From assembly GCA_016703025.1 (NCBI GenBank), contig JADJCV010000003.1, forward strand, positions 23,506 to 87,505: a DNA stretch of 64,000 nucleotides, in the 5' to 3' direction. Numbering within the stretch: the first letter of the stretch is position 1; each line of letters begins with the position of its first letter. Source of the DNA: Candidatus Avedoeria danica. Its GTDB lineage: Bacteria; Chloroflexota; Anaerolineae; Epilineales; Epilineaceae. Made by a program: the position numbers and the translations under genes. Shown in pieces: positions 5,371 to 61,726 of the stretch. The notes beneath the pieces were generated by a model. It made no database searches, was not told the DNA's origin, and saw nothing but the letters and a program-made list of their open reading frames with translations.

Positions 5371-7320
5371 ATGGATTCCGTAAGCAACGTACACCCGATC
5401 CACCCGAGACGCCATCCGGGCCGGTCGACGTTCGCCGTTGCAGCCGTCGCCTGCGTCATGCTCGGCGTTGCCGGCCGCGCGCAAGAAGGGAGCGGCACAG
5501 GCAACCGCGCCGACAGTGCCGTGCATGCTGCCGGCTTCGCCGACAGCGCGGACATCGCCGATAACGCGGACGTCGCGGATTTCGCGGGCATCGCCGACAT
5601 CGCCGACACGCCCGCTCCCATCCAACTCCTCACCGTCGCCACGAACTTCAACAACCCGATCGGCATCGACCACCACGCCCCCTCCCAGGGGGTTGTCGTG
5701 TCCGTGAACTACCCGGACGGCCGCCCGCGCAACTTCGAGCTCGTCCTGCCGACGGGCCGGCACCAGCGGTTCAGCGGCCTGACCGGGTTCACCGAGGAGG
5801 TGAAGATCGGCTCGATCTGGGAGAGCGGGTGCCAGGCCGGCTTCACGCCCGGCGAGCTCTTCACCGGCACGGGCGACCCCGGCGTCATCGCGCGCATCAG
5901 CGCCGACGGCGACCGCGTGCAGCGGGCGTGGGTCCGGCTGCGCGGCGAGTCCGGCCTGCTGCGCGGCAGCCTGTTCCAGGACCGCTTCTGCGTCTTCGGC
6001 GGCGACCTGATCGTCGTCACGACGACGGGGGGCGTTTGGCGCGTGACGAGCGCCGGTGCCCAGACGCGCGTCGCCGACCTCGGCGCGCACCTCGAGGGGC
6101 TCACGACGGTGCCGAACGACGCCGATCGCTTCGGGCCGTGGGCGGGCAGGATCCTCATCGGCGCCGAGGGGCAAGGGCGGATCTACGCCGTGGCGGCCGA
6201 CGGAACCGTCGAATCGTTCCAGCTTGGCCTGACCGTCGAGGACCTCGACATCGTCCCGCCGGACGCCTCGTTCTACGGCGTCGACTACGCGGGGCGGCGG
6301 ATCGTCACCGCCGGACCGGAGCAGTGGACGGACAAGGTGGGGGACATGGTCGTCGCCGAGGAGAACGGCCAGCTCTGGGACGTACGGTGGAACGCCGCGG
6401 CCGGCGCGTTCGTCAAGGTCCAGCTGGCGCGTGTGGCGCAGTGGGAGCACGTCACGTTCTCGACCGCCAGGATCGTTACCCGCCCGCCGACCCGCACCCC
6501 GGAGTCCTCCCCGCCGCCCCCGCCGACCCCGACGGTGCCGACGCCCACGCCGACCGACACGCCGGTGCCGACATCGACGTCGACCCCGACCCCGTCGCCC
6601 ACGGATACCCCGACCCCCACGGATACGCCGACGTCGACCCCCACGCCGACGCCCGCCGTATTCCGCGCCTACCTCCCGATCGGCGTCGATGAGACCTGCA
6701 TCGCCAGCCACAAGCACGCGGATGTCGTCCTCATCGTCGACACCTCGACCAGCATGCTGGCCGCGGCCGGCGACGGCGTGCGCAAGATCGACGCCGCGCG
6801 CGCTGCGATCGCAGCGTTCCTGGCGCAGCTCGACCCCGCCAGCGACCGCACCGCGCTCGTCGCGTTCGACGACACGGCCACCGTCGCCGTGCCGCTGACG
6901 GGCGACCTCGATGCCGTCGCCGCCGCGCTGGGCGCCCTGCCGCACCACGAGGGCACGCGGCTCGACCTCGGCCTGGCGGCGGCGCGTGATGCCCTGGCCG
7001 GGATCGCATCGACCCCCGACCGCATTCCCGCCGTCGTCCTGTTGACCGACGGCCGCCCGAACCGCGTCCCGACGCCCGATGGCGGTGGACGGCAGGAGGA
7101 CACCGTGCGGGCCGTCGCCGCTCAGTTGAAGGCCGGCGGGGCGCATGTCTACACCGTCGGCTTCGGCGACGACGTCGACGGCGCGCTGCTGGCGGACGTC
7201 GCAAGCACGCCCGGCGACGCGTTCATTGCGCCGGATGCGGCGGCGCTGGCGCGGATCTACGCGGCGGTGGCGGTGGCCATTCCGTGTGGGGGGGTGTATT
7301 GGCCGCTGGGGAGGCCGTGA
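5371..7320 (+). CDS. Secreted beta-propeller-like protein with a Pro/Thr-rich linker and a C-terminal VWA domain (MIDAS motif DTSTSM)
   Basis: The chosen start has AGGGGG 5 nt upstream and gives a signal peptide MDSVSN...AVAAVACVMLGVAGRAQEG. PT linker at residues 400-450 (TPTVPTPTPTDTPVPTSTSTPTPSPTDTPTPTDTPTSTPTPTP). VWA signature VVLIVDTSTSM...LLTDGRPN...VYTVGFG. Confidence 0.8.
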   Translation: MDSVSNVHPIHPRRHPGRSTFAVAAVACVMLGVAGRAQEGSGTGNRADSAVHAAGFADSADIADNADVADFAGIADIADTPAPIQLLTVATNFNNPIGIDHHAPSQGVVVSVNYPDGRPRNFELVLPTGRHQRFSGLTGFTEEVKIGSIWESGCQAGFTPGELFTGTGDPGVIARISADGDRVQRAWVRLRGESGLLRGSLFQDRFCVFGGDLIVVTTTGGVWRVTSAGAQTRVADLGAHLEGLTTVPNDADRFGPWAGRILIGAEGQGRIYAVAADGTVESFQLGLTVEDLDIVPPDASFYGVDYAGRRIVTAGPEQWTDKVGDMVVAEENGQLWDVRWNAAAGAFVKVQLARVAQWEHVTFSTARIVTRPPTRTPESSPPPPPTPTVPTPTPTDTPVPTSTSTPTPSPTDTPTPTDTPTSTPTPTPAVFRAYLPIGVDETCIASHKHADVVLIVDTSTSMLAAAGDGVRKIDAARAAIAAFLAQLDPASDRTALVAFDDTATVAVPLTGDLDAVAAALGALPHHEGTRLDLGLAAARDALAGIASTPDRIPAVVLLTDGRPNRVPTPDGGGRQEDTVRAVAAQLKAGGAHVYTVGFGDDVDGALLADVASTPGDAFIAPDAAALARIYAAVAVAIPCGGVYWPLGRP

Positions 7321-28852: not shown

Positions 28853-29329
28853 ATGATCCGCGAAGATACTGCCCCCGCCGTCCGCACGACGACGTTCGTT
28901 ACGCTCTCCCCGGTCACCCTGTCTTCGACTGCGGCGGTCAAGCTGTCCGAAGTCATGGCCCAGAAGGGCATGACGGATGCGGCGCTGCGCGTGTTCGTCA
29001 GCGGCGGCGGCTGCTCGGGCCTGCAGTACGGCATGGCCTTCGACAACGAGATGGATGAGGCCGACCAGGTCTTCGAGAGCGAGGGCGTCAAGGTCGTCGT
29101 CGATCCCGTGAGCCTCCCCTACCTGCAGGGCGCCACGATCGACTTCACCGACTCGCTGATGGGCGGCGGCTTCAAGATCGAGAACCCGAACGCCGTGTCG
29201 AGCTGCGGCTGCGGCACGTCGTTCAAGACGTCCGATCAGGCATCGTCCGGGGCCGAGGGCGAGGCCAAGGCGCAGGGCGGCGGCTGCGGCAGCCACGGCA
29301 GCGGTGGTGGCGGCTGCGGCTGCAGTTGA
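28853..29329 (+). CDS. sufA: HesB/IscA/SufA-type Fe-S cluster insertion protein with an unusual C-terminal Gly/Cys-rich tail
   Basis: 158 aa. RVFVSGGGCSGLQYGMAFD...GVKVVVDPVSLPYLQGATIDFTDSLMGGGFKIENPNAVSSCGCGTSF is the HesB signature with 3 Cys. The tail is GAEGEAKAQGGGCGSHGSGGGGCGCS. GGAG lies 8 nt before ATG 28853. Confidence 0.85.
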   Translation: MIREDTAPAVRTTTFVTLSPVTLSSTAAVKLSEVMAQKGMTDAALRVFVSGGGCSGLQYGMAFDNEMDEADQVFESEGVKVVVDPVSLPYLQGATIDFTDSLMGGGFKIENPNAVSSCGCGTSFKTSDQASSGAEGEAKAQGGGCGSHGSGGGGCGCS

Positions 29330-30645
29330 TCGAAGGCGGGACTGAGCCGATCGCGGCGGCAACGACGTCGCTGATGCCGCAGGCGGCTTCGGTCTCGGCC
29401 GGCTCCCCTGTCGCCGATCCCGTGCCCGGTCTCGATCCGGCGGCCATCCGACGTGACTTTCCGCTCCTCGTCGCCCATCCCGAGCTGATCTACCTCGACA
29501 GCGCCGCAACGGCCCAGAAGCCGCAAGCGGTTCTCGACGCGCTCCTCGACTTCTACACGCACCACAACGCGAACGTCCACCGGGGCGCCTACACGCTGGC
29601 GGCCGACGCGACGCTGGCCTACGAGGCGGCCCGCGCCCGGATCGCCCGCTTCATCGGCGCGCGCGATGCGGCCGAGGTCGTCTTCACGCGCGGGACGACG
29701 GAGGCCGTGAACCTCGTGGCCGGCGCGTGGGGACCGGCGAACGTCTCCGCTGGCGACACGATCGTCGTCACGGAGATGGAGCACCACAGCAACCTCGTGC
29801 CGTGGCATCTGCTGGCCGCCCGGACCGGCTGCCGGCTGCGCGTGGTCCCGATCACACCCGACGGCCGCCTCGACCTCGACGGGCTCGACGGCCTGGTCGA
29901 CGAGACCGTCAAGCTGATCGCAGTCGCCCACATCTCGAACGCCGTCGGCACCGTCAATCCCGTCGCCGACATCGTCGCCGCCGCGCGGCGCGTCGGTGCG
30001 AAGGTGCTGCTGGACGCGGCGCAGAGCGTGCCGCACCGGAAGGTGGACGTCACCGCGCTCGGCGTCGACTTCCTGGCCGCCAGTGGGCACAAGATGATGG
30101 GCCCGATGGGCATCGGCTTCCTCTGGGCGCGGGCCTCGATCCTGGCCGGGATGCCGCCGTGGCAGGGCGGCGGCGAGATGATCCGGCGCGTGACACCGAC
30201 CGACAGCACATACGCCGATCCGCCGCAGCGCTTCGAGGCCGGCACGCCGTCCGTCGCGGATGCCGTCGCGCTCGCCGCCGCCGCCGACTACCTGGACCGC
30301 CTCGGCCTCGACGCCTGCGCCGCCCACGATGCATCGCTCGTCGCCTACGCCCTCGAGCGGCTCGGCGACGCGCCCGGCGTCCGCATCGCCGGCCCGCTCG
30401 ACGCCCCGTCGCGCTGCGGCTCGGTGGCCTTCACGGTCGACGGCGTGCACGCGCACGACCTGGCGACGCTGCTCGACGGCGACGGCCTGTGCGTCCGCGC
30501 CGGCCACCACTGCACGATGCCGCTGCACGCGCGGTTGGGGCTGGCGGCGACGGCGCGGGCGAGCTTCCAGGTGTACAACGGTACGGCGGACATCGACGCG
30601 CTGGTGGCGGGGATCGCCCGGGCGCGGGGGGTGTTTGGGGTTTAG
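29326..30645 (+). CDS. sufS: Cysteine desulfurase (SufS-type, class V aminotransferase)
   Basis: IRRDFPLL...IYLDSAATAQKP...NANVHRGAYTLA...SGHKMMGPMGIGFLW (PLP Lys)...GHHCTMPLH (catalytic Cys). TTG start overlaps the sufA stop. The alternative ATG at 29374 is possible. Confidence 0.85.
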   Translation: MIEGGTEPIAAATTSLMPQAASVSAGSPVADPVPGLDPAAIRRDFPLLVAHPELIYLDSAATAQKPQAVLDALLDFYTHHNANVHRGAYTLAADATLAYEAARARIARFIGARDAAEVVFTRGTTEAVNLVAGAWGPANVSAGDTIVVTEMEHHSNLVPWHLLAARTGCRLRVVPITPDGRLDLDGLDGLVDETVKLIAVAHISNAVGTVNPVADIVAAARRVGAKVLLDAAQSVPHRKVDVTALGVDFLAASGHKMMGPMGIGFLWARASILAGMPPWQGGGEMIRRVTPTDSTYADPPQRFEAGTPSVADAVALAAAADYLDRLGLDACAAHDASLVAYALERLGDAPGVRIAGPLDAPSRCGSVAFTVDGVHAHDLATLLDGDGLCVRAGHHCTMPLHARLGLAATARASFQVYNGTADIDALVAGIARARGVFGV

Positions 30646-30670
30646 ACAAAGGGGCTCGCGTGGCCGAGGA

Positions 30671-30830
30671 GGCCCCCGCCCCCGGCGCGCTGTCGCGCGC
30701 CGACCCCTCCCCCAATACTGGGGGCGGGGTGCAGAACGAATGCGACTCGTTCAAGACCCTCCCCCAGAATTGGGGGAGGGACAGGCTGGCCGCAGGCCAG
30801 CCAGGGCGGGGGCCTCGCCGCACACCACAA
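30671..30830. repeat. Palindromic intergenic repeat element copy A (about 150 bp), related to copy B at 61442-61590
   Basis: Inverted 24-26-bp motifs cccctcccccaatactgggggcgggg / ccctcccccagaattgggggaggg, followed by the hairpin ggctggcc-gcag-gccagcc. GC-rich inverted flanks ggcccccgcccccgg / agggcgggggcc. Lies between the sufS stop and the flotillin promoter. Confidence 0.6.
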
Positions 30831-30928
30831 CCCCATCCGCCCATCCATCGTATGATCCCCCCGTGCTGCGTCCCCCGGACGGCACCGTGCCGCCCCGACG
30901 CACACGCGCAAGGAGGATCACACCAACC

Positions 30929-33073
30929 ATGAGCCCGTTCGTCTGGCTGTTCCTGGCCGTCATCGCCCTGCCGACGGCGTGGTGGCTGTTCCCGCGCTTC
31001 AGCGGCATCCGCTTCATCCCGAACAACCGCGTCGCGATCGTCGAGAAGCGGTTCAGTGGGCGCGGCTCGCTCAAGAGCGGCTTCATCGCCCTCAACGGCG
31101 AGGCCGGCTATCAGCCGCAGGTGCTGCGCGGCGGGCTGCACTTCCGGATGCCGCTGCAGTACAAGATCCACAGCATCCCGCTCGTCACGATCCCGCAGGG
31201 CAAGCTCGGCTACATCTTCGCCCGCGACGGCGCGCGGCTCGAGCCGGGGCAGACGCTGGCGTCCAACTCACGCGTCGTGAACTTCGAGGACGCGGATGCG
31301 TTTCTGCGCGGCGGCGGGCAGCGCGGGCCGCAGCGCCAGGTGCTCCGCGAGGGGATCTACGCCTTCAACCTGGCGCAGTTCGCCGTGATCACGGACGAGA
31401 AGGTCTACGCGCTGGCGCTGTCCGGCGAAGAGGCCGAGATCATCAAGCAGATGGCCGACATGATCACCCAGCGGGACGGCTTCCGCGCGGTGATCATCAA
31501 GGACGCGGACGACCTCGCCGGCGTCGTCACCGTCCACGACGGGCCGTCATTGCCGCAGGGTGCGATCATCGCCCCGACGATGGGCGACGACCCGGCCCAC
31601 GCCGACACGTACCACAACAGCTTCCAGGACGCCGACAAGTTCCTGGCCGCCGGCGGCATGCGCGGCCGGCAGCTGCAGGTGCTCGTCGAGGGCACGTACT
31701 ACCTGAACCGCCTGTTCGCCACGGTCGAGACGATCCCGAAGACCGTCGTCGACGTGGGCTACGTCGGGGTCGTCGTGTCCTACATCGGCGAGGTCGGCAC
31801 GGACATCTCGGGCACGGACTACAAGCACGGCGAGCTCGTAACGCGCGGCAGCCGCGGCGTCTGGAGCGAGCCGCTCCTGCCGGGCAAGTACGCGTTCAAC
31901 ACGTACGCCGGCAAGGTCAACATGGTGCCGACGACCAACTTCATCCTGAAGTGGGTGCGCAGCGAGTTCGGGTCGCACAACCTGGACGAGAACCTGTCCG
32001 AGGTCTCGTTGATCACGAAGGACGCGTTCGAGCCGAACCTGCCGCTGTCGGTGGTCATCCACATCGACTACCGCCAGGCGCCGCTCGTGATCCAGCGCTT
32101 CGGCGATGTGAAGCGGCTGGTGGAGCAGACGCTGGACCCGATGGTGTCGGCGTACTTCAAGAACATCGGCCAGACGCGAACGCTCATCCAGCTGATCCAG
32201 GAGCGGAACCAGATCCAGGAACAGGCCAGCATCGAGATGAAGGCCAAGTTCCACCACTACAACCTCGAGCTGGAAGAGGTCCTGATCGGCACGCCGGCCT
32301 CGAGCAGCGGCGACGACAAGATCGAGGTGATCCTGACGCAGCTGCGCAGCCGCCAGATCGCCGAAGAGCAGGTCGAGACCTACAAGCGCCAGGAGCGGGC
32401 GGCCTTCCAGGAGCGCGTCCTGCGCGAGGCCGAGGCCAGGGCGCGCCAGCAGCAGAAGCTGACGGAGTCAGAGGTCGAGATCACGATCCAAAGCAACCAG
32501 GGCAAGGCGGACTACCAGCGGGCGTTGCAGCAGGCCGCCCAGATCCGCGCGCTGGCCGAGGCCGAGGGCGAGAAGGCGGCCCGCATCGGCATCGGACAGG
32601 CGATGGCCATCGAGGAGCAGGTGCGGGCGTACGGCGGGCCGCAGTTCCAGGTGATGCAGGCGGTGATGAACCGGTTCGCCGAGGCGATCGAGGCCTCGGG
32701 GGTCGACGTCGTGCCGAAGATCCTCATCGGCGGCAGCGGCGGCGGTGCGGGCGGCGATGGGTCGTCGGGCGGCGGCGGGGCGTTCGGCGGGGGCGGCGGG
32801 AGCGGCAGCCTCGTCGAGGCGTTGCTGGCGATGCTGCTGAGCGACAAGGTCGGCGGGCTGGCGAGCGCGGGCGGTGGCGACGGCGAGGGGGGCGGGCGGA
32901 GCCCGGAGGTCGAGGCGATGCGGAAGCAGATTCGGGAGGGGATGTTCAAGAAGGTGGAGGAGGTGTCGGAGGCGGTGGCCGCTCCGCCGGCAGCGCCCGC
33001 ACAGTCGACGCCCTCGGGCACGGGAACACCCGGCGCGCCGGCGGGATCGACGGCAGGGGCGACGCCGGCGTGA
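30929..33073 (+). CDS. Flotillin-like SPFH/band-7 protein (714 aa)
   Basis: Met224 of the track ORF with AAGGAGGA upstream. N-terminal TM (MSPFVWLFLAVIALPTAWWLF), an SPFH domain, and a long coiled coil (EQVETYKRQERAAFQERVLREAEARARQQQKLTESEV...). Gly-rich C-terminus. Confidence 0.8.
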   Translation: MSPFVWLFLAVIALPTAWWLFPRFSGIRFIPNNRVAIVEKRFSGRGSLKSGFIALNGEAGYQPQVLRGGLHFRMPLQYKIHSIPLVTIPQGKLGYIFARDGARLEPGQTLASNSRVVNFEDADAFLRGGGQRGPQRQVLREGIYAFNLAQFAVITDEKVYALALSGEEAEIIKQMADMITQRDGFRAVIIKDADDLAGVVTVHDGPSLPQGAIIAPTMGDDPAHADTYHNSFQDADKFLAAGGMRGRQLQVLVEGTYYLNRLFATVETIPKTVVDVGYVGVVVSYIGEVGTDISGTDYKHGELVTRGSRGVWSEPLLPGKYAFNTYAGKVNMVPTTNFILKWVRSEFGSHNLDENLSEVSLITKDAFEPNLPLSVVIHIDYRQAPLVIQRFGDVKRLVEQTLDPMVSAYFKNIGQTRTLIQLIQERNQIQEQASIEMKAKFHHYNLELEEVLIGTPASSSGDDKIEVILTQLRSRQIAEEQVETYKRQERAAFQERVLREAEARARQQQKLTESEVEITIQSNQGKADYQRALQQAAQIRALAEAEGEKAARIGIGQAMAIEEQVRAYGGPQFQVMQAVMNRFAEAIEASGVDVVPKILIGGSGGGAGGDGSSGGGGAFGGGGGSGSLVEALLAMLLSDKVGGLASAGGGDGEGGGRSPEVEAMRKQIREGMFKKVEEVSEAVAAPPAAPAQSTPSGTGTPGAPAGSTAGATPA

Positions 33074-42620: not shown

Positions 42621-45600
42621 ATGATGCACCCGCCTCGCTCGCCCATGCTCACGCGCACCGCCGTATTCGTCGGCCTCGCCGCCGTCGCGTGCGCGGTCCC
42701 CATCGCCGTCGCCGCCCGGCGCGCCGACGTCGGCGCCACCGCACCTGTGCAGGCCCGGCCCCGGGCCCAGTTCCTGGCCCAGTCCCAGCCGCAGCCGCCG
42801 ACCGCATACGCGTTGGCCGGCGAGTGGGTGTGGCCGGAGCGGCCGATGCTGCCGGTGGATGTCGCGTTTCTGGAGGACGGGCGCGTCGTGGTGGCCGATG
42901 GTCGGAACCCGCGCGTCGTCGTCGTCGGCCCCGAGGGGGACGTCGAGGCGGTGTGGCGGACGGCGTACGAGCCCGTGGCGCTGGCGGTGGATCCGGCGGG
43001 CGGGCGGGTGTACGTGCTGTGCTTCGCGCAGACGCGGGCGCGCGTCGGGCGGGATGCCGTGGTGACGACGCACGAGGTTCTCGAGACCTGGGCGCTGGAC
43101 GGGCAGCGGGTGCGACAGGATGTCCTGCCGGGATGGTCGACGGCCAGCGCCGACGAGGCGCCGAGCTGGGATGTCGCGGTGGCGTGGGGCGGGGCGCCGG
43201 TCGTGCAGGCCGACAACGTGCTCTACCGCGTGACGCTGTCCGATGACGACGCCGTGCCTGCGACGTTCACGCCGCTGTCGGGCCTCTCGCGCGGCACCGC
43301 GGTGCGCCCGGTTCGCCTTGCCGCGGCGGACGACGGGCTCGTCATCGCCCAGGCTGCGACCGGCATCGTGTCCCGCGTGGACGCCACCGGGCGCACCGTG
43401 GCGCGCCGAGACTGGCCGGGCGAGCGCGTGCTCGACGTCGCGATCGACCGCCGCGAGCGGGTGCACGTCCTCGTCGGGCCGGGCGAAGGCGGTGCGGGCG
43501 GCCGGGTGCGGCACATCGTCCTGAGCGCCGCGCTGGCACCGCTGGACGATCGGCCGTTGGCGGACGACGCCGCGCCTTCGGCGACCATCGCCCCCGCACA
43601 GGCCGCGTTCGCCTGGGCGCTCGACGTGTACGGCGACGGCGTGGCGGTCGTCGGGGGCGGGGCCAACCTGTCGCTCCGGCGCTGGACGGGGCCGGTGTCG
43701 GACGCGCCGGCCGTCGTGCAGCCGTTCGGTGCGCGTCCGGCCGCGTTCGACGCGCGCGACAAGCGCGTGGCCGGCAGCCGCGCGCTGGCCCTCGGCGCGC
43801 TGCCCGACGGCCGGACGGTGGCCCTTGATGGGCCGCAGGCGCGTGTCGTGGCATTCGACGCGTCCGGTCTCGGGACGAACGTCGTCACGTTCGCGGGCGA
43901 CGCGGTCGATGCGGCCGTGGCGGAGGACGGGACGGTGTGGGCGACGTTTGCCGACGGCACGGTGCGGCGCGTGACCGGACCGGGACTCGGGTCGCTTGGC
44001 GCGGCGCCTGACGACCCATCCGCCGCGCGATGCGAATGCCCGCTCGGCGGTCGGATCGCGGTGGACCGTTCGCGCGCCTACGTTTCCCGGCCGACGAGCC
44101 GAACGGTGGCCGGGATCGCCGGTTTGGCCGGCCTTGCGCCCGACGATGCACCGGGCGGTGCGTCGCCGCGGCTGCTCGCCTGGGCGGAGGGCGTCGGCCT
44201 CTGGCCGAGCGACATCGCGGTGGCCGCCGACGGTACCGTGCTGGCGGCGGATGCGATCGCGGGCGAGATCGTCGGGTGGTCGCCGGGGTCGCTCGAGGGT
44301 GCGCCGCCGGACCGGCGCTGGCCGGCGGGGCTGCTGGCCGGGCCGCGGCGGCTCGCGGCGGGGCGCTTCGGCGGGCCGGGCGGCCTGGATCTGGTGGCCG
44401 CCACGCTGACGGACGGTGCCGTCGAGGTCCACCGCGGCGACGACGGCGGACTGCTGGCGCGCTTCACGCCGGTTGTCGACGGGGCCGTCGTGTCGGCCGA
44501 GGACGTGGCGCTGCACGCGGATGGGCGGATCGTGTTGGCCGAAGCGGTCTCGCGCCGGGTGCACGCCTTCGTGCCGTCCGCGGCGCCGGTCGACCCGACC
44601 GAGCCCGGCGGGCTGGGTGCCACCCCATCGCCGACGCCGACGCCGTCGGACGGGAGCTGTCGTGTGAGCGGCGACAAGCGGGTCGGGCCGGAAACGATCG
44701 TGCTCGGCCAGACGGCCGCCGTCACGTTGACGCTCTCGGCTGATTGCCCGCCGCGCGCGCGGCTAGCCGGGGCCGACATCGTCCTCGTGCTCGATCGCTC
44801 CGGCTCGATGTACGGTGAGGCGATGCAGCGCGCCAAGGACGCGGCCCGGACGTTCATCGAGCTCCTCGATGTCCGGCGGCACCGCGCGGCGCTCTTGTCG
44901 TTCGCCGGCTTCGTGACCGTCGACGCGCCGCTGTCGACGGACAGCGCGGCGGTCATCCGGGCCCTCGACACGCTCGTGCCGGACGGCGGGACGAACCTGA
45001 CGGACGCGATCCGCCAGGCCGGCATCGTGCTCGGCCGCGAAGGGCGGGCGGATGCGTTGCCGGTCATCGTCCTGATGACGGACGGGCGCGACTCGAACGG
45101 GCGCGACGGGCCGCTCCAGGCGGCCGGAGATGTGAAGGCGCAGGGCGTCCAGATCTACACGATCGGCCTCGGGCGCGACCTCGACGAGGGCGGGCTGCAG
45201 GCGATCGCAACGCGCCCCGACCGCTACTTCCACGCGCCGACGCCCGACGAGCTCTTCCCGATCTATCGCCAGATCCTGCGCTTGGTGGAGACGAGCCTCG
45301 CCGGCAACCTGATCGTGACGGACCGGCTGGGCGACCGGATGGCGATGATCGGTGGTTCCTCGGCACCGGCAGCGCTCGAGGGCGCCGACCGTCTGTCGTG
45401 GGGCCGCTCGATCCTGCCGGCCTCCGGTGTGACGTTCACCTACCGCGTGCGCCCGATCGAAGCCGGTCGCTGGCCGGTGAACCGCGAGGCCGTCGCCCGC
45501 TACGCCGATGCGGACGGGGTCGAGCGCTCGTTCGTCTTCCCGGTGCCGCAGATCCTCGTCCTGGCGCCCACCCCCACCCCCACCGCCACACCGACCTCGA

Positions 45601-46298
45601 CCCCGACGCCGACGACGACGCCCACGCCCACCCGCACGCCGACGTCGACGCCGTCGCCGACGCCGACGCACACCGCGACGATCACGCCATCCCCGACCGC
45701 GACACGCGTCCCGCGGCCGATCTACCTGCCGCTCGCGCTGAACAGCCACTGCATTCCGACCGGCCAGTACGTCGACCTGATCCTCGTGCTCGACACCTCG
45801 GCCTCGATGGCCGGCGACAAGTTCGCGGCCGCCCAGGCGGCGGCCCGGACGTTCGTCTCGCTGTTCGACCCGCCGCGCGACCGCCTGTCGCTCATCAGCT
45901 TCAGCGAGGTTGCCACGCTCGTCGTGCCGCTCGGGTCGAGCACGACCCGTCTGCGCGCCGGCATCGACGGCCTGGCCCTTGCCCCCGGCACGCGAATCGA
46001 CCGCGCGCTGGAGGCGGCACGGGCCGAGCTGCGCTCGACGCGGCGCCGCGCGGCGAACAAGCCCGTCGTCGTCCTGCTGTCCGACGGCAGCCAGTCCGGC
46101 GAGACCGCACCGCTCCTGGCGGCCGCCGACCGCGTGCTCGCCGACGGCGTCACCGTCCACACGATCGGCCTCGGCCCGGACGCCGACCGCGCGATGCTCG
46201 AGCGGATCGCCTCCCGGGGCGGGTTCCGGTACGCGCCGGGAACGGCGGAGCTGGAGGGCGTGTACCGCGCGATCGCCGGGCAGACGCGGTGCCGGTGA
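42621..46298 (+). CDS. Large secreted protein with an N-terminal NHL/beta-propeller-like repeat region (about 690 aa) and two VWA domains separated by a PT linker (VWA paralog 1)
   Basis: Signal peptide (MLTRTAVFVGLAAVACAVPIAVAA). The exact start among 42561 (TTG), 42588, 42621 and 42645 is unresolved. Propeller-like repeats (VDVAFLEDGRVVVADGRNPRVVVV, PSDIAVAADGTVLAADAIAGEIVGW). VWA1 is ADIVLVLDRSGSM...VLMTDGRDS...IYTIGLG. PT linker TPTPTATPTSTPTPTTTPTPTRTPTSTPSPTPT. VWA2 is DLILVLDTSASM...VLLSDGSQS...VHTIGLG. Confidence 0.75.
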   Translation: MMHPPRSPMLTRTAVFVGLAAVACAVPIAVAARRADVGATAPVQARPRAQFLAQSQPQPPTAYALAGEWVWPERPMLPVDVAFLEDGRVVVADGRNPRVVVVGPEGDVEAVWRTAYEPVALAVDPAGGRVYVLCFAQTRARVGRDAVVTTHEVLETWALDGQRVRQDVLPGWSTASADEAPSWDVAVAWGGAPVVQADNVLYRVTLSDDDAVPATFTPLSGLSRGTAVRPVRLAAADDGLVIAQAATGIVSRVDATGRTVARRDWPGERVLDVAIDRRERVHVLVGPGEGGAGGRVRHIVLSAALAPLDDRPLADDAAPSATIAPAQAAFAWALDVYGDGVAVVGGGANLSLRRWTGPVSDAPAVVQPFGARPAAFDARDKRVAGSRALALGALPDGRTVALDGPQARVVAFDASGLGTNVVTFAGDAVDAAVAEDGTVWATFADGTVRRVTGPGLGSLGAAPDDPSAARCECPLGGRIAVDRSRAYVSRPTSRTVAGIAGLAGLAPDDAPGGASPRLLAWAEGVGLWPSDIAVAADGTVLAADAIAGEIVGWSPGSLEGAPPDRRWPAGLLAGPRRLAAGRFGGPGGLDLVAATLTDGAVEVHRGDDGGLLARFTPVVDGAVVSAEDVALHADGRIVLAEAVSRRVHAFVPSAAPVDPTEPGGLGATPSPTPTPSDGSCRVSGDKRVGPETIVLGQTAAVTLTLSADCPPRARLAGADIVLVLDRSGSMYGEAMQRAKDAARTFIELLDVRRHRAALLSFAGFVTVDAPLSTDSAAVIRALDTLVPDGGTNLTDAIRQAGIVLGREGRADALPVIVLMTDGRDSNGRDGPLQAAGDVKAQGVQIYTIGLGRDLDEGGLQAIATRPDRYFHAPTPDELFPIYRQILRLVETSLAGNLIVTDRLGDRMAMIGGSSAPAALEGADRLSWGRSILPASGVTFTYRVRPIEAGRWPVNREAVARYADADGVERSFVFPVPQILVLAPTPTPTATPTSTPTPTTTPTPTRTPTSTPSPTPTHTATITPSPTATRVPRPIYLPLALNSHCIPTGQYVDLILVLDTSASMAGDKFAAAQAAARTFVSLFDPPRDRLSLISFSEVATLVVPLGSSTTRLRAGIDGLALAPGTRIDRALEAARAELRSTRRRAANKPVVVLLSDGSQSGETAPLLAAADRVLADGVTVHTIGLGPDADRAMLERIASRGGFRYAPGTAELEGVYRAIAGQTRCR

Positions 46299-46392: not shown

Positions 46393-46812
46393 ATGAGCTT
46401 CCAACAGCGACCCCAACGCCGCACTCCGCGCTGCCCGTGGTGCGATCAGGAGATGGTCCCGAGTCCCGACAGCCGCGGCGGCCGCCTCTTCTGCCCGACG
46501 GGCGAGGCGGTCGAATACCGTTTGAGCGGCGGGCGGTGGTACTTCAACGGGCGCCTGAACGGTCTCGACGAACCGATTCCACCGGCGCCGGATGACGGTG
46601 ATCCGACGGGCGCGGGCGAGGATGAGGCTGCCGTTTCCTCGAAGCGGGTGGAGATGCGCGATCGTACGGATGCGTCGGCTCCGTCGGCTCCGTCGGCGCC
46701 GCCGGAGCCGACGGAGCCGGTTCAGCCAGAGTCGCTCGATCCGCTCGATGCGTTCCGACAGATCGCCAGCGATGCGTGGGGTGCGGCGGATGCGGACGAA
46801 GAGGCGGAGTAG
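46393..46812 (+). CDS. Small acidic protein (139 aa) with an N-terminal zinc-ribbon-like CPWC-x15-CP motif and a disordered Pro/Asp/Glu-rich tail; candidate SOS-regulated gene
   Basis: GGAG 8 nt upstream of ATG 46393. The track ORF starts at 46351, inside the LexA-like box. GC3 about 70%, lower than neighbours, so coding status is uncertain. Confidence 0.4.
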   Translation: MSFQQRPQRRTPRCPWCDQEMVPSPDSRGGRLFCPTGEAVEYRLSGGRWYFNGRLNGLDEPIPPAPDDGDPTGAGEDEAAVSSKRVEMRDRTDASAPSAPSAPPEPTEPVQPESLDPLDAFRQIASDAWGAADADEEAE

Positions 46813-46853
46813 GGTCGCGTTGGGGTGAGGGAAGGCGTAGGGCACGGGAGGAA

Positions 46854-46978
46854 GTGCAGAGCCGGCGGGCGGGGGTGGTTGGGGACGGGGCATTTTGGTT
46901 CGTGCATTTTGTTCGCAGGGGCCGCTTGGCCCCTGCACCCCAGCCAGGGGGCGCAGCGCCCCCCTGGACCCCCCGCAT
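46854..46978. repeat. Left arm of a 125-bp near-perfect inverted repeat (partner at 47218-47344)
   Basis: Reverse complement of 47218-47344 except cattttggttcg vs ctttttgggttcg. Contains nested hairpins caggggcc-gctt-ggcccctg and gggggcgc-a-gcgccccc. Confidence 0.7.
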
Positions 46979-47217
46979 CGGAATTTCCGGTCGTTCAAGC
47001 ACGCGGTCTCGCGCCCGGAAGAGGTCTGGCGGATCGAAGTGCGGCACAGAGTAGTTGGTGGACCGCCCCGCGGCGTGCGGGCCAAAAACGTCAACGAGCA
47101 AGATGACATCCCAACGATCTTGCTCGATCAATTGCCTGCTCGTTCGACGGGATTGGGGCGTCCGCTCCAATCTACGCGCCGACGACAATCCGCGGCGGCC
47201 ATAGAAGCGAAACCTGG

Positions 47218-47344
47218 TGCGGGGGGTCCAGGGGGGCGCTGCGCCCCCTGGCTGGGGTGCAGGGGCCAAGCGGCCCCTGCGAACAAAATGCACGAACCCA
47301 AAAAGCCCCGTCCCCAACCACCCCCGCCCGCCGGCTCTGCACCC
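47218..47344. repeat. Right arm of the 125-bp inverted repeat; the 238-bp lower-GC core lies at 46979-47216
   Basis: See the left arm. Followed by a roughly 150-nt polypyrimidine (C/T-rich) leader up to the VWA paralog 2 start codon. Confidence 0.7.
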
Positions 47345-47501
47345 CGTCCCCTGCCCTACCTCTTCCCTTGCCCGACCTCCCACACACCCCCCCCCAACGC
47401 CCCACGCGTCCGATCACACCCTGCTATCCTTCCCCCCCGGTCGCGCCTTCTACCTCCTGCCGCACGCCGTTCGCGCCCGACGCCCAGCCGGGGGAGCCTG
47501 C

Positions 47502-56864: not shown

Positions 56865-58370
56865 ATGCTTGGCTATGCCGTTGTCGACCGTTTCGCGCGT
56901 AGCACCGCCGTCCTCGCCATTGCCTGGATGTCAGTGCCCGGCGTTGCCGTTAAGTCGCCGACGCCGACTCCCTATCCCGTGTCGCTCACGCTCGAGGACG
57001 CGCGGCGGAGCGTGCGCGAGCGGATGGGCGCCGCGCCGGGCCTGCGCGTCGGCGGTGCGGCGTACATCACCGGCCGCGATCTCTTCGAGCGTTGGCCCTA
57101 TCGCCCCGGCGTCGCGAACGCCGGACTCACGTACCTCGATGCGATCCATTCATTCGACTCGCGATCCACGGAGCCTCCGGCCGCGCCGCTCGCCGACGTC
57201 GTCGTGGTCGTCGAAGGTTCGATCGCGCCGCGCCCGCGATCGGTCCCCGCGGACGACTGGCACCGCGTCGCAACGTCCTTTGTGCTGACCACATCGCTCG
57301 GCTGCGCGCGCTTTGACGGCACGCCCCGCGCACCGTTCCACGCCGTTCTCGATGCCCGGACGGGGCAATGGCTGGGCGCGAGCTGGCTGGAGGTGGCGTG
57401 GCAGACATGCCTGCTGCGCGATCTGACGACGGCCACGCTACCGCACATCACCCTCGCGACGCCGCTGCCGACGACGGCCGCATCCGCGCCGACGGCGACG
57501 CCGCGCCGTCCGCAGTCGTGGCCGTGGCCCGCCGACGGGCCGACGCCGCGGCCGCCCGATCTGCCGGACTACGCTTGGCAGCCGCGGCCCCTCGCGCGTG
57601 GCCAGGTACCGGCGGCCCTGGCGAAGATCGCCGCCGACGTGCCGGTCGCTGCGGGGGCGCGTTGGCGGTACGAGTGGTCGTCGATGACGAACTACACGTT
57701 CTACGAGCGGCAGGACGTCGTGACGGAGACGATCGACGCGGCCTGGCAGATCGGACCGGACGTCATGGTGAGCCACGTCTCGACGAGCCCCGGCATGCGT
57801 GTTATGTGGGGACGAGACGGAGTCTGGCTGTACACCTTCCCGAACGGCTTCGCGACGAACCTGCAGGTGCACCGTGGACTCGGGCCGGATCACAAGCCGT
57901 CCCTTTCGATCATGCGAAGGTGGCTCGACAAGATCGCGATCGAAGATGGACAGGAGGCATCGGAGATGGCGGCCAACGCATTGAACGAGGGCGTCGACAC
58001 GCTGGCGATCGACGCGTTGCCGTGGCCGCCCTCGGTCTGGCACTACGCCACCTGGGCGTGGCACTGGAGCGGCGACGCGGACGTGCGCGTTCCGGCCGGC
58101 CGGTTCCGCGGTTGCCACGGGCTTGACGTTGCCTGGGGCTCGAATTCCGGACGGGCATACGATTGGTTCTGCTCCGGGATCGGCCTCGTGCGGCATGACT
58201 ATCACGACTACGGCATGGGTTACGGCGACAACGCGATGGAGCTCGTGGCCTACGACATCCCGCCCCTCGTCGCCCGCGACGCCCCGCCGTTGCCAACGAC
58301 GACCGCGACACCGACCAAGACTCCGGCTGCGCCCGTCGCCCGTCGAACCATCAGCCTCATCCGCCAGTAG
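56865..58370 (+). CDS. Secreted hypothetical protein (501 aa), Trp-rich C-terminal domain
   Basis: AAGGAGG 8 nt upstream of ATG 56865, in frame with track ORF 55911..58370. Signal-like N-terminus MLGYAVVDRFARSTAVLAIAWMSVPGVAV. C-terminal PT tail. Its 3' end overlaps the convergent Uma2 gene by 14 nt. Confidence 0.6.
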   Translation: MLGYAVVDRFARSTAVLAIAWMSVPGVAVKSPTPTPYPVSLTLEDARRSVRERMGAAPGLRVGGAAYITGRDLFERWPYRPGVANAGLTYLDAIHSFDSRSTEPPAAPLADVVVVVEGSIAPRPRSVPADDWHRVATSFVLTTSLGCARFDGTPRAPFHAVLDARTGQWLGASWLEVAWQTCLLRDLTTATLPHITLATPLPTTAASAPTATPRRPQSWPWPADGPTPRPPDLPDYAWQPRPLARGQVPAALAKIAADVPVAAGARWRYEWSSMTNYTFYERQDVVTETIDAAWQIGPDVMVSHVSTSPGMRVMWGRDGVWLYTFPNGFATNLQVHRGLGPDHKPSLSIMRRWLDKIAIEDGQEASEMAANALNEGVDTLAIDALPWPPSVWHYATWAWHWSGDADVRVPAGRFRGCHGLDVAWGSNSGRAYDWFCSGIGLVRHDYHDYGMGYGDNAMELVAYDIPPLVARDAPPLPTTTATPTKTPAAPVARRTISLIRQ

Positions 58371-59004
58371 GCCCGAACACGTCCTCCACCCGAATCCGCA
58401 CGTCTCCAAACGCCCCCGGCACCACCGCCTCCCCCCGCCCATACCGCACCACCGACGCGTACCCCTTGCCGTCCGCCCTTGGCTCGCGGTGCACCTCGAT
58501 CACGCTCTCCGCGACGGCGACGACCCAGTACTCCGGCACGCCGGCGCGGGCGTACATCGGCGCCTTGACGCGGCGGTCGAAGCGGAGGGTGGAGTGGCTG
58601 ATCTCGATGACGAGGGCGCAGTCGGCGGCGGTGATCGAATGCGCCTGCAGCTCGGCCGGTGTGTAGGTCCGCTGGAGCACGGCGAAGTCCGGCATCGGCA
58701 TGGACCAGCGGTCCATCTTCACGGAACTGCTCGGAAGGATGTCGGCCCGGCCCTTGAACTGATCGTAGATTACGCGGCCGAGAAAGACGCTCGCGGAATT
58801 GTGGCCGCCGCCTGTCGGGGACATCGTGTAGATCTCTCCATCGATCAGCTCGACCCGCGCGTCCGGTGGCAGCTCGGCCGCACAGAAGCGGACGAACATG
58901 TCGACGTCGAACCGCAGCTTGGTCGGCGCGCGGCCACGGGATGGCGAGATAAACGCGGACGGCGCGCCTGGCGCATTCGGTTGCACCATCGGTGAGACGG
59001 TCAT
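58357..59004 (-). CDS. Uma2-family (DUF820) PD-(D/E)xK endonuclease-like protein, tandem paralog A
   Basis: 215 aa from MTVSPMVQP. RFDVDMFVRFCAAELPPDARVELIDGEIY...DFAVL...ALVIEISHSTLRFDRRVKAPMYARAGVPEYWVV is the Uma2 signature (ELIDG, D-x-E/A-x-E, YAxxGIxEYW). SD GAGGGTGG upstream. Confidence 0.75.
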   Translation of the reverse strand: MTVSPMVQPNAPGAPSAFISPSRGRAPTKLRFDVDMFVRFCAAELPPDARVELIDGEIYTMSPTGGGHNSASVFLGRVIYDQFKGRADILPSSSVKMDRWSMPMPDFAVLQRTYTPAELQAHSITAADCALVIEISHSTLRFDRRVKAPMYARAGVPEYWVVAVAESVIEVHREPRADGKGYASVVRYGRGEAVVPGAFGDVRIRVEDVFGPTGG

Positions 59005-59047
59005 GGCCACCCTCGATTCGTGAATCGAAACCGTACGGTCGTCGCCT

Positions 59048-59671
59048 TCATCCCGGCCCGAGCACCTCGTCAACGCCAATGCGCACATCCTGGAACCCCG
59101 CCGGCGTGACGGCCTCGCCCCGCCCATACCGCACCACCGACGCGTACCCCTTCCCGTCCGCCCGCGGCTCACGTTGAACCTCGATCACGCCCTCGCCGAC
59201 AGCGACGATCCAGTACTCGGGAATCCCGGCTCCCGCGTACGCGCTGGCCTTCCTGCCCCGGTCGAAGCGAAGGCTGGATCGCGCGACCTCGATGATGAGA
59301 AGGCAGTCTGCAGGCTCGGCGTGGCGCTTGTGGTACTCGGTCGGATCGTCGTGCCGCACGAGCACGGCGAAGTCGGGCATGGGCATGGACCATCGGCCGA
59401 GCAGGATGGAGCTGCCGGGCAGCACGCGGGCGCGATCGCCTAGGCGCTGGACGAGCAGTCGATTCAGGTCGATGGTTGGACCGTTGTGTTCGGGCGACGT
59501 CGGCGGCATCTCGTAGATCACCCCATCGATCAGCTCGACCCGCGCGTCCGGCGGCAGCTCGGCCGCACAGAAGCGGACGAACATGTCGACGTCGAACCGT
59601 AGCCTGGCAGGCCCGCGGAGGCGGGGCCGGGCGGGCGGCGCGGTCGGTCGCAGTGTTGGCGAGACGGTCAT
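59048..59671 (-). CDS. Uma2-family (DUF820) endonuclease-like protein, tandem paralog B
   Basis: 207 aa from MTVSPTLRP. N-terminal 30 aa and the C-terminal ...PRADGKGYASVVRYGRGEAV block are nearly identical to paralog A, with matching stretches of identical DNA. SD GAGGGG upstream. Confidence 0.75.
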   Translation of the reverse strand: MTVSPTLRPTAPPARPRLRGPARLRFDVDMFVRFCAAELPPDARVELIDGVIYEMPPTSPEHNGPTIDLNRLLVQRLGDRARVLPGSSILLGRWSMPMPDFAVLVRHDDPTEYHKRHAEPADCLLIIEVARSSLRFDRGRKASAYAGAGIPEYWIVAVGEGVIEVQREPRADGKGYASVVRYGRGEAVTPAGFQDVRIGVDEVLGPG

Positions 59672-59848
59672 GGGGGCCCCTCGATTCACGTCGTGCACGT
59701 GCGGGCAAGGATAGACGGACGGCCGGACGACCGCAACGGTCCTTCGGACACGTCCGCGACACGTTGGCGACACGGGCGTCGAGCTGCAGCCGATGCCTGT
59801 GCACCTCGCCAGCAGAGGCGATGCAACTCAGCATGCCATCTTGCGCGC

Positions 59849-59941: not shown

Positions 59942-61348
59942 ATGCGCTCGACACCAAACCGCCCGCCGCGCCCGTCCCTTCCCGCCGCCCTCCTCGCGGC
60001 CGTCGCCCTGGCCATCGTGGGCACCGTCGCTGTCGCCGCCAGAACCCACGGCCGTGCGGACGCCGTCGACGACGCCGTCCGCACGGCCGCCGCCGCGGCC
60101 CGCTCCGCGACCGACGACCCCGCACCCCCCTCCCCCTACATCTGGCCCAGCGGCCCCCCCGCCGACCCCACCTACTTCCCGATCGCCGTCTGGCTCCAGA
60201 GCCCGTCCAACGCGCAGGCCTTCGCCGCGCTCGGCATCAACCTGTTCATCGGCCTCTGGGAGGGGCCGACCGACGCCCAGCTCGACGCGCTGACGTTGGC
60301 CGGGATGCCCGTCATCGCCGACCAGAACGACGTCGCGCTGGCGCGGCGGGGTGCGTCGACGGCCACGGGGCGGATCCTGCAGGGCTGGATGCAGCAGGAC
60401 GAGCCGGACAACGCGCAGTCGGACGGCCAGGGCGGGTGGGGGCCGTGCGTGGATCCGGCCGAGATCATCGCGCGCTACGAGCGGATGAAGGCGGCGGATC
60501 CGGATCGCCCCGTGTGGCTGAACCTGGGGCAGGGCGTGGCCTGGGACCTCGACCGGCCGTACTACGGCCGCGGCAGCGCGTGCGCTGGGCGGTGGGACCA
60601 GTACCGGGAGTATGTGAAGGGCGCCGACATCGTCTCGTTCGACATCTACCCCGTCACGAGCCCGGACGCGCCGATCACCGGCGACCTGTCGCGCGTCGCG
60701 CTCGGCGTCGACCGGCTGCGCGAGTGGACGGAGGGGGAGAAGATCGTCTGGAACGTCGTCGAGACCACCCACATCGGCGCGGAGGTGAGGCCGACGCCCG
60801 CGCAGCTGCGCGCCGAGGTCTGGATGAGCCTCGTCCACGGTTCGATGGGCATCGTGTACTTCGTCCACGAGTGGTTTCCGCGCTTCCGCGAGCCGGCGCT
60901 GCTGGACTATCCGGACATGCGCGCCGCCGTCACGGACCTCAACCGGCAGATCCGCGACCTCGCCCCGGTCCTCAACTCGCCGAGCGTCGACCGCGTCGTG
61001 GCCGTGGCCCCGGACGACCCGTCCCGCCGCGTCGATGTCATGGTGAAGCGCACGGGCGGCTGGCTGTACGTCCTGTCCGTGGCGATGACGGACGATCCGA
61101 GCGACGTGACGTTCCGGATCGACCCGGCGGTGCTATCGCCTGATGTCGTCGACGGCGCAGGGGTCGAGGTCATCGACGAGGGGAGGACCGTCGCCCTCGT
61201 CGACGGCTCGTTCCGCGACGCGTTCGGCGGGTACGGCGTGCACCTTTACCGGGTGCGCATCCGCCCACTGACGCCGACCACGCCGGAGCCGGAGTCCACA
61301 CCGGCCACGACGTCGTGGCGGCTGGTGCTGCCGTGGTTGCAGCGGTAG
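59942..61348 (+). CDS. Secreted hypothetical protein (468 aa), possibly a glycosidase-like TIM-barrel; PT-rich C-terminus
   Basis: Signal/anchor MRSTPNRPPRPSLPAALLAAVALAIVGTVAVAA. Trp/acidic-rich core (WLNLGQGVAWD, DIVSFDIYPV, VWNVVETTHIG). No confident family. Confidence 0.55.
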   Translation: MRSTPNRPPRPSLPAALLAAVALAIVGTVAVAARTHGRADAVDDAVRTAAAAARSATDDPAPPSPYIWPSGPPADPTYFPIAVWLQSPSNAQAFAALGINLFIGLWEGPTDAQLDALTLAGMPVIADQNDVALARRGASTATGRILQGWMQQDEPDNAQSDGQGGWGPCVDPAEIIARYERMKAADPDRPVWLNLGQGVAWDLDRPYYGRGSACAGRWDQYREYVKGADIVSFDIYPVTSPDAPITGDLSRVALGVDRLREWTEGEKIVWNVVETTHIGAEVRPTPAQLRAEVWMSLVHGSMGIVYFVHEWFPRFREPALLDYPDMRAAVTDLNRQIRDLAPVLNSPSVDRVVAVAPDDPSRRVDVMVKRTGGWLYVLSVAMTDDPSDVTFRIDPAVLSPDVVDGAGVEVIDEGRTVALVDGSFRDAFGGYGVHLYRVRIRPLTPTTPEPESTPATTSWRLVLPWLQR

Positions 61349-61441: not shown

Positions 61442-61590
61442 AGGCCCCCAACCCCCGGCGCGCTCTGCGCGCCGACCCCTCCCCCAATGCTGGGGCAGGG
61501 GTGGCAGGGCCAACAACGCATGGTCGAGTCCCTGCCCCAGCATTGGGGGAGGGACAGGCTGGCCAACGGCCAGCCAGGGTTGGGGGCCCG
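61442..61590. repeat. Palindromic intergenic repeat element copy B (related to 30671-30830)
   Basis: Perfect 24-26-bp inverted motifs cccctcccccaatgctggggcagggg / ccctgccccagcattgggggaggg. Shares with copy A the segment gggggagggacaggctggcc-NNNN-ggccagccaggg and the flanks gcgcgccgacccctcccccaat / gggNgggggcc. Located between the previous gene's stop and the next gene's start. Confidence 0.6.
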
Positions 61591-61726
61591 TGGGCATGGG
61601 ACAGCCCTGGCAAGGCTTGACTCCCCCCACCCCGCGCACCATCATCCCGCCCCACCGGCCCGGCCCCGTCGCGCCGCCTTCGCGCGCGCCGCTGCCGCAG
61701 ACCGCCGCCCCCGCACGATCCGCCCC

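Follow-up and report, generated by a model that had tools for sequence, protein, structure and literature searches.

The stretch of DNA analyzed here (64,000 nucleotides, referred to below as the window) belongs to a Chloroflexota bacterium related to Ardenticatenales, and it contains two copies, A and B, of a non-coding palindrome of approximately 145 bp each. A and B are gene-less inverted doublets of a BoxC/PIT/TM-type repeat unit, and we consider it fairly probable that they are non-autonomous, with nucleases of the DUF559 family as the likely partner enzyme. In other genomes, arms of this type show a specific association with DUF559 genes. The kind of repeat is known, while the structural variant and its arrangement are new. 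An earlier note on this DNA had reported a palindromic element present twice, and we found both copies, identically oriented on one strand; the BoxC/PIT/TM nature of the arms, and the arms around DUF559 genes elsewhere, had been missed.

The conserved part of copy A spans 30671-30814 (+) and that of copy B spans 61443-61588 (+), in the same orientation as copy A. The end given earlier for copy A, 30830, overshoots by approximately 15 nt. Each palindrome is composed of two arms, inverted around a 27-28-nt centre of arbitrary sequence (Table 1). Read from the inner core to the outer end, on the plus strand for the right arm and the minus strand for the left arm, an arm contains a C-block (CCCTCCCCC), a 6-nt loop, a G-block (GGGGGAGGG), an 8-bp sub-hairpin, and a mirror G-block (GGGnGGGGG). 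Copies A and B are 81.6% identical over the whole element, with arms at 87-88% and centres (27 and 28 nt) at 57% in a gapped alignment. Across copies A, B, and C (a third copy, found on an unrelated contig), the centres share 45-57% identity compared to 87-91% for the arms. The 19-mer CCCTCCCCCAATNCTGGGG, common to both window copies, gave six matches at three or fewer mismatches, none of them outside the copies, against 0.06 in shuffled sequence. GC content at third codon positions (GC3) collapses over both elements, indicating that there is no coding signal, as had been proposed.

Each strand of each copy has a fold energy of -133.6 to -142.2 kcal/mol (z-scores of -9.7 to -11.4), and none of 200 shuffled sequences was equally stable. 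The predicted fold combines a 12-bp outer stem, an 8-bp left hairpin (CGGCGCGC/GCGCGCCG), a long central stem formed by pairing of the two cores, and an 8-bp right hairpin (GGCTGGCC/GGCCAGCC). According to these models, DNA or RNA of either strand of A and B can form a very stable branched hairpin or cruciform. Differences between the two copies are compensated within each copy: the outer stem carries G:C in A and AA:TT in B, and the inner core holds a compensated difference as well (GGGGCAGGGG/CCCTGCCCC in copy B). The inner inverted repeat of copy B is perfect (24/24), in agreement with the earlier note. The conserved hairpin described there is also present, but the pattern written with a 4-nt loop has no matches because the right loop is 3 nt (GGCTGGCC-NNN-GGCCAGCC). 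An Rfam search of the window gave no match at gathering score, and permissive E values (up to 10) returned only sub-threshold matches to generic hairpins (miRNA).

We found arms of this type around DUF559 genes. In an Ardenticatenales metagenome-assembled genome (MAG; locus L023) and a Gemmatimonadales chromosome (locus L043), two inverted arms enclose an open reading frame (ORF) of 118-125 amino acids that matches Pfam DUF559 (E = 1e-34 and 4e-37, respectively). The local alignments of the inverted repeats cover 71 columns in L023, which include flanking bases beyond the arm of approximately 62 nt, and 67 columns in L043. Except for the sub-hairpin stems, the arms of L023 are almost the same as in A and B, and the flanks of A, B, and L023 prolong the palindrome with bases particular to each copy. 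At seven more DUF559 loci, retrieved by protein similarity alone, arm-like inverted repeats surround the gene in every case, with cores of the CCCCTCCCCC..GGGGGAGGGG type and, at L137, an inverted-repeat alignment of approximately 100 nt. Inverted arm-like repeats thus flank 9/9 metagenomic DUF559 loci compared to 0/29 other genes. The flank inverted-repeat score has a median of 56 and a minimum of 37 for the DUF559 genes (n = 9), versus a median of 19 and a maximum of 32 for neighbouring and other genes (n = 29; Mann-Whitney p = 3.7e-6). Furthermore, the peptide encoded by a translated arm (PxP..GEG) occurs in 60 of 149 DUF559 cluster representatives (approximately 40%) and in none of 240 control proteins; it lies within the C-terminal 45 residues in 42 DUF559 proteins and within the N-terminal 45 in 13. 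In a Gemmatimonadales chromosome (OY970303.1), both arm variants that flank DUF559 are among the recurrent variants of the genome.

The link is further supported by an identical DUF559 gene that was found in two different contexts, where approximately 73 nt of the upstream sequence, proximal arm included, is identical as well. The Escherichia coli gene ycjD, annotated as DUF559, has its 3' end within a canonical BoxC (..LSPSPQPSP*), with another BoxC in inverted orientation 170 nt downstream. At this sapF-ycjD-fabI locus (L142, 590-1190), a degenerate duplicate of the ycjD 3' end is found downstream together with the inverted BoxC, and in E. coli strain H240 (L141) the first BoxC at ycjD is degenerate. 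At another locus (L127, 1300-2050), the same pair of arm modules stands before and after the DUF559 gene in direct order (X-Y-gene-X-Y) rather than as a simple inverted pair.

DUF559 is a Vsr-fold PD-(D/E)XK nuclease family distantly related to the EDxHD homing endonuclease I-Bth0305I (PMC3424549; PMC3239194; PMC1189080). Its closest solved structure is 3HRL (E = 1e-21), while 3R3P was matched weakly. We counted 11,277 cluster representatives of the family at E ≤ 1e-10. To our knowledge, DUF559 has no known function. A search of open-access text found no literature that links DUF559, Vsr, COG2852, or ycjD to BoxC-type repeats or MITEs. We reasoned that A and B may behave like non-autonomous units of the REPIN (doublet of repetitive extragenic palindromic [REP] sequences) or MITE (miniature inverted-repeat transposable element) kind, whose gene-bearing relatives would carry a DUF559 gene (YcjD-like, Vsr-fold PD-(D/E)XK) between or beside the same arms. 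The DUF559 nuclease would most likely recognize the folded or palindromic arms and nick them, and repair or copying after the nick could then spread or homogenize arms in trans. DUF559 is, we infer, the likely enzyme that recognizes the arms and propagates or homogenizes them. The logic of the DUF559-arm relation would resemble that of REPINs and their REP-associated tyrosine transposases (RAYTs), or homing into doublets. Any effects on flanking genes, through a 3'-end hairpin or through replication or recombination instability, would be a by-product.

Homing would make the arms a target rather than cargo: a free-standing DUF559 homing endonuclease gene would insert into the centres of pre-existing BoxC doublets, and A and B would be empty homing sites. 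DUF559 belongs to the Vsr-like EDxHD homing endonuclease lineage (PMC3424549; PMC3239194; 3HRL and 3R3P as above), and the arm-associated protein shares fold and family with I-Bth0305I (PMC3239194) and E. coli YcjD (PMC1189080). The gene occupies the position that the 27-28-nt centres hold in A and B, and the identical DUF559 gene in two contexts would also fit. However, the unrelated centres of A, B, and C make cleavage at a specific central sequence unlikely, and recognition would have to rest on the arms. When remnants of a deleted gene were sought by eye, these centres had no similarity to the gene-proximal parts of L023. Known homing endonucleases carry additional DNA-binding domains and are found within introns or inteins, whereas the arm-associated DUF559 proteins are stand-alone, of 110-130 amino acids, and framed by repeats, with none encoded in the window. 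Homing also leaves the spread of gene-less doublets unexplained, and we regard it as unlikely.

Several observations weigh against a DUF559-driven, non-autonomous doublet. DUF559 has no tblastn match in the 64-kb window, so the partner gene is unseen in this genome. No direct repeat, as expected of a target-site duplication, abuts the ends of A, B, L023, L043, or L125. In Azospirillum, a DUF559 gene has a complete gene-less doublet immediately upstream, which fits the association but puts the doublet beside the gene and not around it. Single arms also occur at the ends of unrelated genes (L033), and at L052 one arm lies inside an ORF. The commonest Gemmatimonadota arm breaks two of the seven sub-hairpin pairs, and the third-strand position of copy A is a C, which gives a non-standard triad. 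We know of no biochemical activity of DUF559 on such arms. Finally, the association would be explained equally well if DUF559 genes inserted into pre-existing repeats or were trapped by them.

The first descriptions of BoxC/PIT/triplex-motif repeats came from E. coli in the 1990s; hundreds of bacterial genomes carry them in abundance, and local genome instability has been linked to them. We know of no enzyme or spreading mechanism assigned to them. A purine-motif intrastrand triplex requires that the last block mirrors the second. The published TM_ECO pattern is CCCTCNCCC-N3-6-GGGNGAGGG-N3-GGGNGAGGG, and triplex formation by TM_ECO in vitro has been reported (Holder et al. 2015, PMC4666352). 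Blocks 1 and 2 of this pattern are matched by the right arm of copy A (CCCTCCCCC-AGAATT-GGGGGAGGG) and, with one substitution, by the other three arms. Like the published unit, the window arms contain a C-block, a short loop, a complementary G-block, and a second G-block that mirrors the first; they are likewise intergenic and multi-copy, without strand bias, and their loci vary between close strains. They differ in loop 2, which is 24-25 nt long with its own 8-bp hairpin instead of the published N3 and lies outside the loop range of 1-6 nt used in the intrastrand-triplex-forming (ITxF) search (PMC4666352). They also differ in block 3, which is GGGnGGGGG instead of GGGNGAGGG, in their arrangement as inverted doublets around a 27-28-nt centre, and in their Chloroflexota host. 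Block 3 mirrors block 2 (GGGGGAGGG); its n, a C in copy A and TT in copy B, does not give ideal triads. Among distinct arms from all loci, block 3 tracks block 2 in mirror register (49:6 versus 1:14; Fisher p = 2.7e-9, uncorrected for relatedness), such that GGGGGAGGG is paired with GGG(T/A)GGGGG and GGGAGAGGG with GGGTGAGGG. Canonical TM_ECO motifs lie alongside window-type arms in 27 of the 144 loci fetched. Judged from these sequence features, the window arms represent a BoxC/PIT/TM-type variant with a hairpin inserted in loop 2, arranged as inverted pairs. TM_ECO loci were reported to be more rearranged among E. coli strains than control sites, and mobility functions were never found near these repeats (PMC4666352).

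Scanning species-representative genomes with the core 19-mer, we found that the family comprises at least 120 loci in Gemmatimonadota, Chloroflexota, Rhodospirillales, and Latescibacterota. The matches listed include Longimicrobiaceae and Gemmatimonadales (both Gemmatimonadota) as well as Nitrolancea, Thermomicrobiales, Ardenticatenales, and Anaerolineales (the last four within Chloroflexota), and among these matches most are single arms, with some doublets around 50-70-nt centres. A metagenome scan with a subfamily-specific 23-mer returned only one further copy (C, L134), with arms 89-91% identical to those of A and B and an unrelated 29-nt centre. Viral contigs scanned with the core gave no matches. 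There are thus more copies than two, and the architecture is conserved across phyla, which bears out the earlier proposal of a dispersed non-coding palindromic family of the REP/MITE type. The position between the outer block and the core is occupied by seven different stems, all perfectly paired. Across 28 arms, four of the seven sub-hairpin pairs changed on both sides and 21 cells were compensated; none of 500 shuffles reached the observed score, and slid controls were far lower. The sub-hairpin therefore appears to be conserved as a structure and not as a sequence. The arm within an ORF at L052 (6358-6420) is a single arm with another sub-hairpin (CGGCGAGC/GCTCGCCG); the ORF is 950 amino acids long and reads the arm in frame (..RPSPSIGGGVGERSSPGAGALG..), which resembles the Rickettsia palindromic elements inserted in genes.

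We asked whether A and B could be REPINs in the strict sense, mobilized by a RAYT elsewhere in the genome, with DUF559 merely a frequent neighbour. In the work of Bertels and Rainey (PMC3116915, PMC3337134), REPINs are non-coding, intergenic pairs of inverted palindromic units that form a long hairpin with their spacer, and such units also flank a small enzyme gene. Copies A and B resemble REPINs in their doublet architecture, in lying between genes, and in their potential to form hairpins, and our view is limited to 64 kb of the genome. However, most RAYT-associated REPs are marked by a GTAG or CGTC tag (PMC3733652), and neither tag nor its complement is present in A or B, including 30 nt of flank. 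Moreover, all arm pairs found around a gene-sized interval (approximately 300-600 nt) enclose DUF559, a Vsr-fold PD-(D/E)XK nuclease and not an HUH/Y1 transposase; in one wider pair (approximately 1 kb, L033), the enclosed ORF is hydrolase-like. We saw no Y1 transposase, although RAYTs were not searched for systematically. A RAYT-driven origin is in our view improbable, and for a DUF559-driven one the mechanism is inferred. Copies A and B also share with MITEs, such as the Correia/NEMIS elements of Neisseria, terminal inverted repeats, a length of about 150 bp (below approximately 300 bp), the lack of an ORF, a location at gene ends, and gene-bearing relatives with the same ends (here L023 and L043). 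They differ from MITEs in that no target-site duplication is visible at either copy, the partner gene DUF559 is not a known transposase, and the arms would be composites of hairpin and triplex modules.

Copy A lies 25 nt past the stop of a sufS-like class-V aminotransferase gene (29326-30645) and 114 nt ahead of an SPFH/Band-7 gene (30929-33073). Copy B lies 94 nt past the stop of a 468-amino-acid ORF (59942-61348; no Pfam match, plus strand backed by GC3) and 138 nt ahead of a DRL-type oxidoreductase gene (61727-63019). The proposed placement between a gene stop and the next promoter held in part: a stop lies upstream of both copies and a sigma-70-like site follows copy B, while the consensus promoter scan found no sigma-70-like site downstream of copy A. 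A -10-like hexamer, TATGAT, occurs within TCGTATGAT (30846-30856) downstream of site A and is kept in the related contig described next.

The SPFH protein of the window has no exact match on record; a homology search showed it to be 94% identical to that of an Ardenticatenales MAG whose contig (L121) is syntenic with the window from 21.3 to 43.5 kb, at 86-94% DNA identity and 92-94% beside site A. The sufS/SPFH spacer of this relative has no copy A. Conservation ends at the stop codon and restarts at CCACAACCC, and in place of A there is an unrelated perfect palindrome with a 20-bp stem (GCACCCCTTGTGGGTGCCC ... GGGCACCCACAAGGGGTGC; L121 9479-9559 versus window 30646-30823). Five intergenic spacers differ between L121 and the window while the genes are 86-94% identical. 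In a second relative (L136; DRL protein 85% identical), copy B is replaced by a different hairpin and the upstream neighbour gene is also different, although the promoter-like TTGACT-17-CATGAT is kept. Our data indicate that A and B are recent, lineage-specific, unstable insertions at gene ends, since A is missing from the same site in a 92-94% relative and B in an 85% relative. No clean empty site was found; the orthologous sites in both relatives hold other palindromes, which points to replacement and not simple insertion, and A and B occupy spots that usually hold some palindrome. A metagenome contig of the same organism (DRL protein 100% identical; L135 1-110) ends within copy B, a typical assembly break at a repeat. 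Short-read assemblies break at these elements, so copy counts in MAGs will be biased.

That some hairpin seems to be wanted at both sites would fit host elements selected in place, which act in cis as RNA or DNA (a 3'-end stabilizer, a terminator without a U-tract, or an insulator between co-directional genes) and have no mobility. Both copies follow a stop codon, precede the promoter region of the next gene, and form extremely stable hairpins. However, the element is missing at the same sites in close relatives, and BoxC-like arm units turn up in unrelated contexts and phyla, facing either way with respect to genes. Both strands fold equally stably, there is no T-tract after either copy, and no terminator-like site was found in the region of A or B; earlier work on E. 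coli PIT/BoxC, relayed by PMC4666352, found no promoter or terminator activity. We therefore give a purely cis-acting role only a small share of the probability, and prefer non-autonomous doublets partnered by DUF559.

Being imperfect palindromes with a variable centre that separate one gene's stop from the next gene's start, A and B also recall the attC sites between integron gene cassettes. The flanking genes are housekeeping genes, syntenic in a relative, and this gene context effectively refutes an attC identity. No R/L box (GTTRRRY) layout was apparent by eye, with no pattern search run. Neither the called window ORFs that were scanned nor the Pfam annotations of the syntenic genes on L121 include an integrase. 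A LexA half-site had been suggested in the centre of copy A. LexA boxes have the form GAAC-N4-GTTC, with a 4-nt spacing, whereas this centre reads GAAC-N11-GTTC and nothing comparable is present in copies B and C; a LexA operator is not supported on either ground.

Table 1. Parts of copies A and B in the window, with one neighbouring promoter-like site
Feature	Positions	Strand	Basis or remark
Copy A left outer block GGCCCCCGCCCCC	30671..30683	+	Complement of right outer G-block; pairs with 30804-30814 in every fold; read on the minus strand, third (mirror) G-block of left arm
Copy A left sub-hairpin CGGCGCGC-tgtc-GCGCGCCG	30683..30702	+	Sequence, fold
Copy A left core CCCCTCCCCCAATACTGGGGGCGGGG (C-block, loop, G-block)	30704..30729	+	Sequence
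Copy A 27-nt centre, sequence not conserved, contains GAACGA..TCGTTC	30730..30756	.	Comparison between copies
Copy A right core CCCTCCCCC-AGAATT-GGGGGAGGG	30757..30780	+	Fits TM_ECO blocks 1-2 (PMC4666352)
Copy A right sub-hairpin GGCTGGCC-gca-GGCCAGCC	30784..30802	+	Sequence, fold
Copy A right outer block GGGCGGGGGCC	30804..30814	+	Mirror of G-block GGGGGAGGG
Copy B left outer block GGCCCCCAACCCCC	61443..61456	+	Its AA is matched by TT in right outer block
Copy B left sub-hairpin CGGCGCGC-tct-GCGCGCCG	61456..61474	+	Sequence, fold
Copy B left core CCCCTCCCCCAATGCTGGGGCAGGGG	61476..61501	+	Sequence
Copy B 28-nt centre, unrelated to copy A centre	61502..61529	.	Comparison between copies
Copy B right core CCCTGCCCCAGCATTGGGGGAGGG	61530..61553	+	Perfect complement of left core
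Copy B right sub-hairpin GGCTGGCC-aac-GGCCAGCC	61557..61575	+	Sequence, fold
Copy B right outer block GGGTTGGGGGCC	61577..61588	+	Sequence
Sigma-70-like site TTGACT-17-CATCAT downstream of copy B (context only, outside repeat)	61617..61645	+	Promoter scan

The remaining genes of the window are those of a housekeeping chromosome (Kdp, malic enzyme, Dtd, NFACT, Pol III delta, and large VWA proteins), and no transposase or integrase was found among the genes scanned, with ORFs of 33.1-42.5 kb judged via L121 only and 56.7-58.3 kb without annotation. A second, unrelated inverted-repeat element (46794-47402) lies between two large VWA-protein genes. Its arms of approximately 107 nt (46871-46977 and 47218-47324) are 90% complementary, with two GC hairpins per arm, and enclose a 240-nt centre that is less GC-rich by eye; it has no Rfam match at gathering score. 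Short-period direct repeats of the CCCACGCCGACC type (spacings of 12, 18, and 24 nt) occur within two VWA-domain genes (6500-6660 and 45540-45725) and resemble coding repeats for Pro/Thr-rich linkers. A tandem duplication with a period of 685 bp (58370-59773, minus strand), probably two tandem paralogues, lies approximately 1.7 kb upstream of copy B with no evident link to it; its ORF 59051-59773 (-) encodes a Uma2-family putative restriction endonuclease (PF05685, E = 9e-27).

By themselves the window elements are ordinary, as two recent repeat insertions at gene ends. Their value is that they expose a testable partner enzyme for an orphan repeat family. Our data raise the possibility, which we put forward tentatively, that BoxC/PIT/triplex-motif repeats and their inverted doublets are non-autonomous partners of DUF559 endonucleases. 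Such a repeat-plus-enzyme system would parallel REPIN/RAYT. A PD-(D/E)XK nuclease would recognize DNA folded as a hairpin, cruciform, or triplex, and conservation of the system would extend from Enterobacteria to Chloroflexota and Gemmatimonadota. If the DUF559 link is true, it would give a role to two orphans, BoxC-type repeats and DUF559, and would add a second class of repeat and enzyme alongside REPIN/RAYT.
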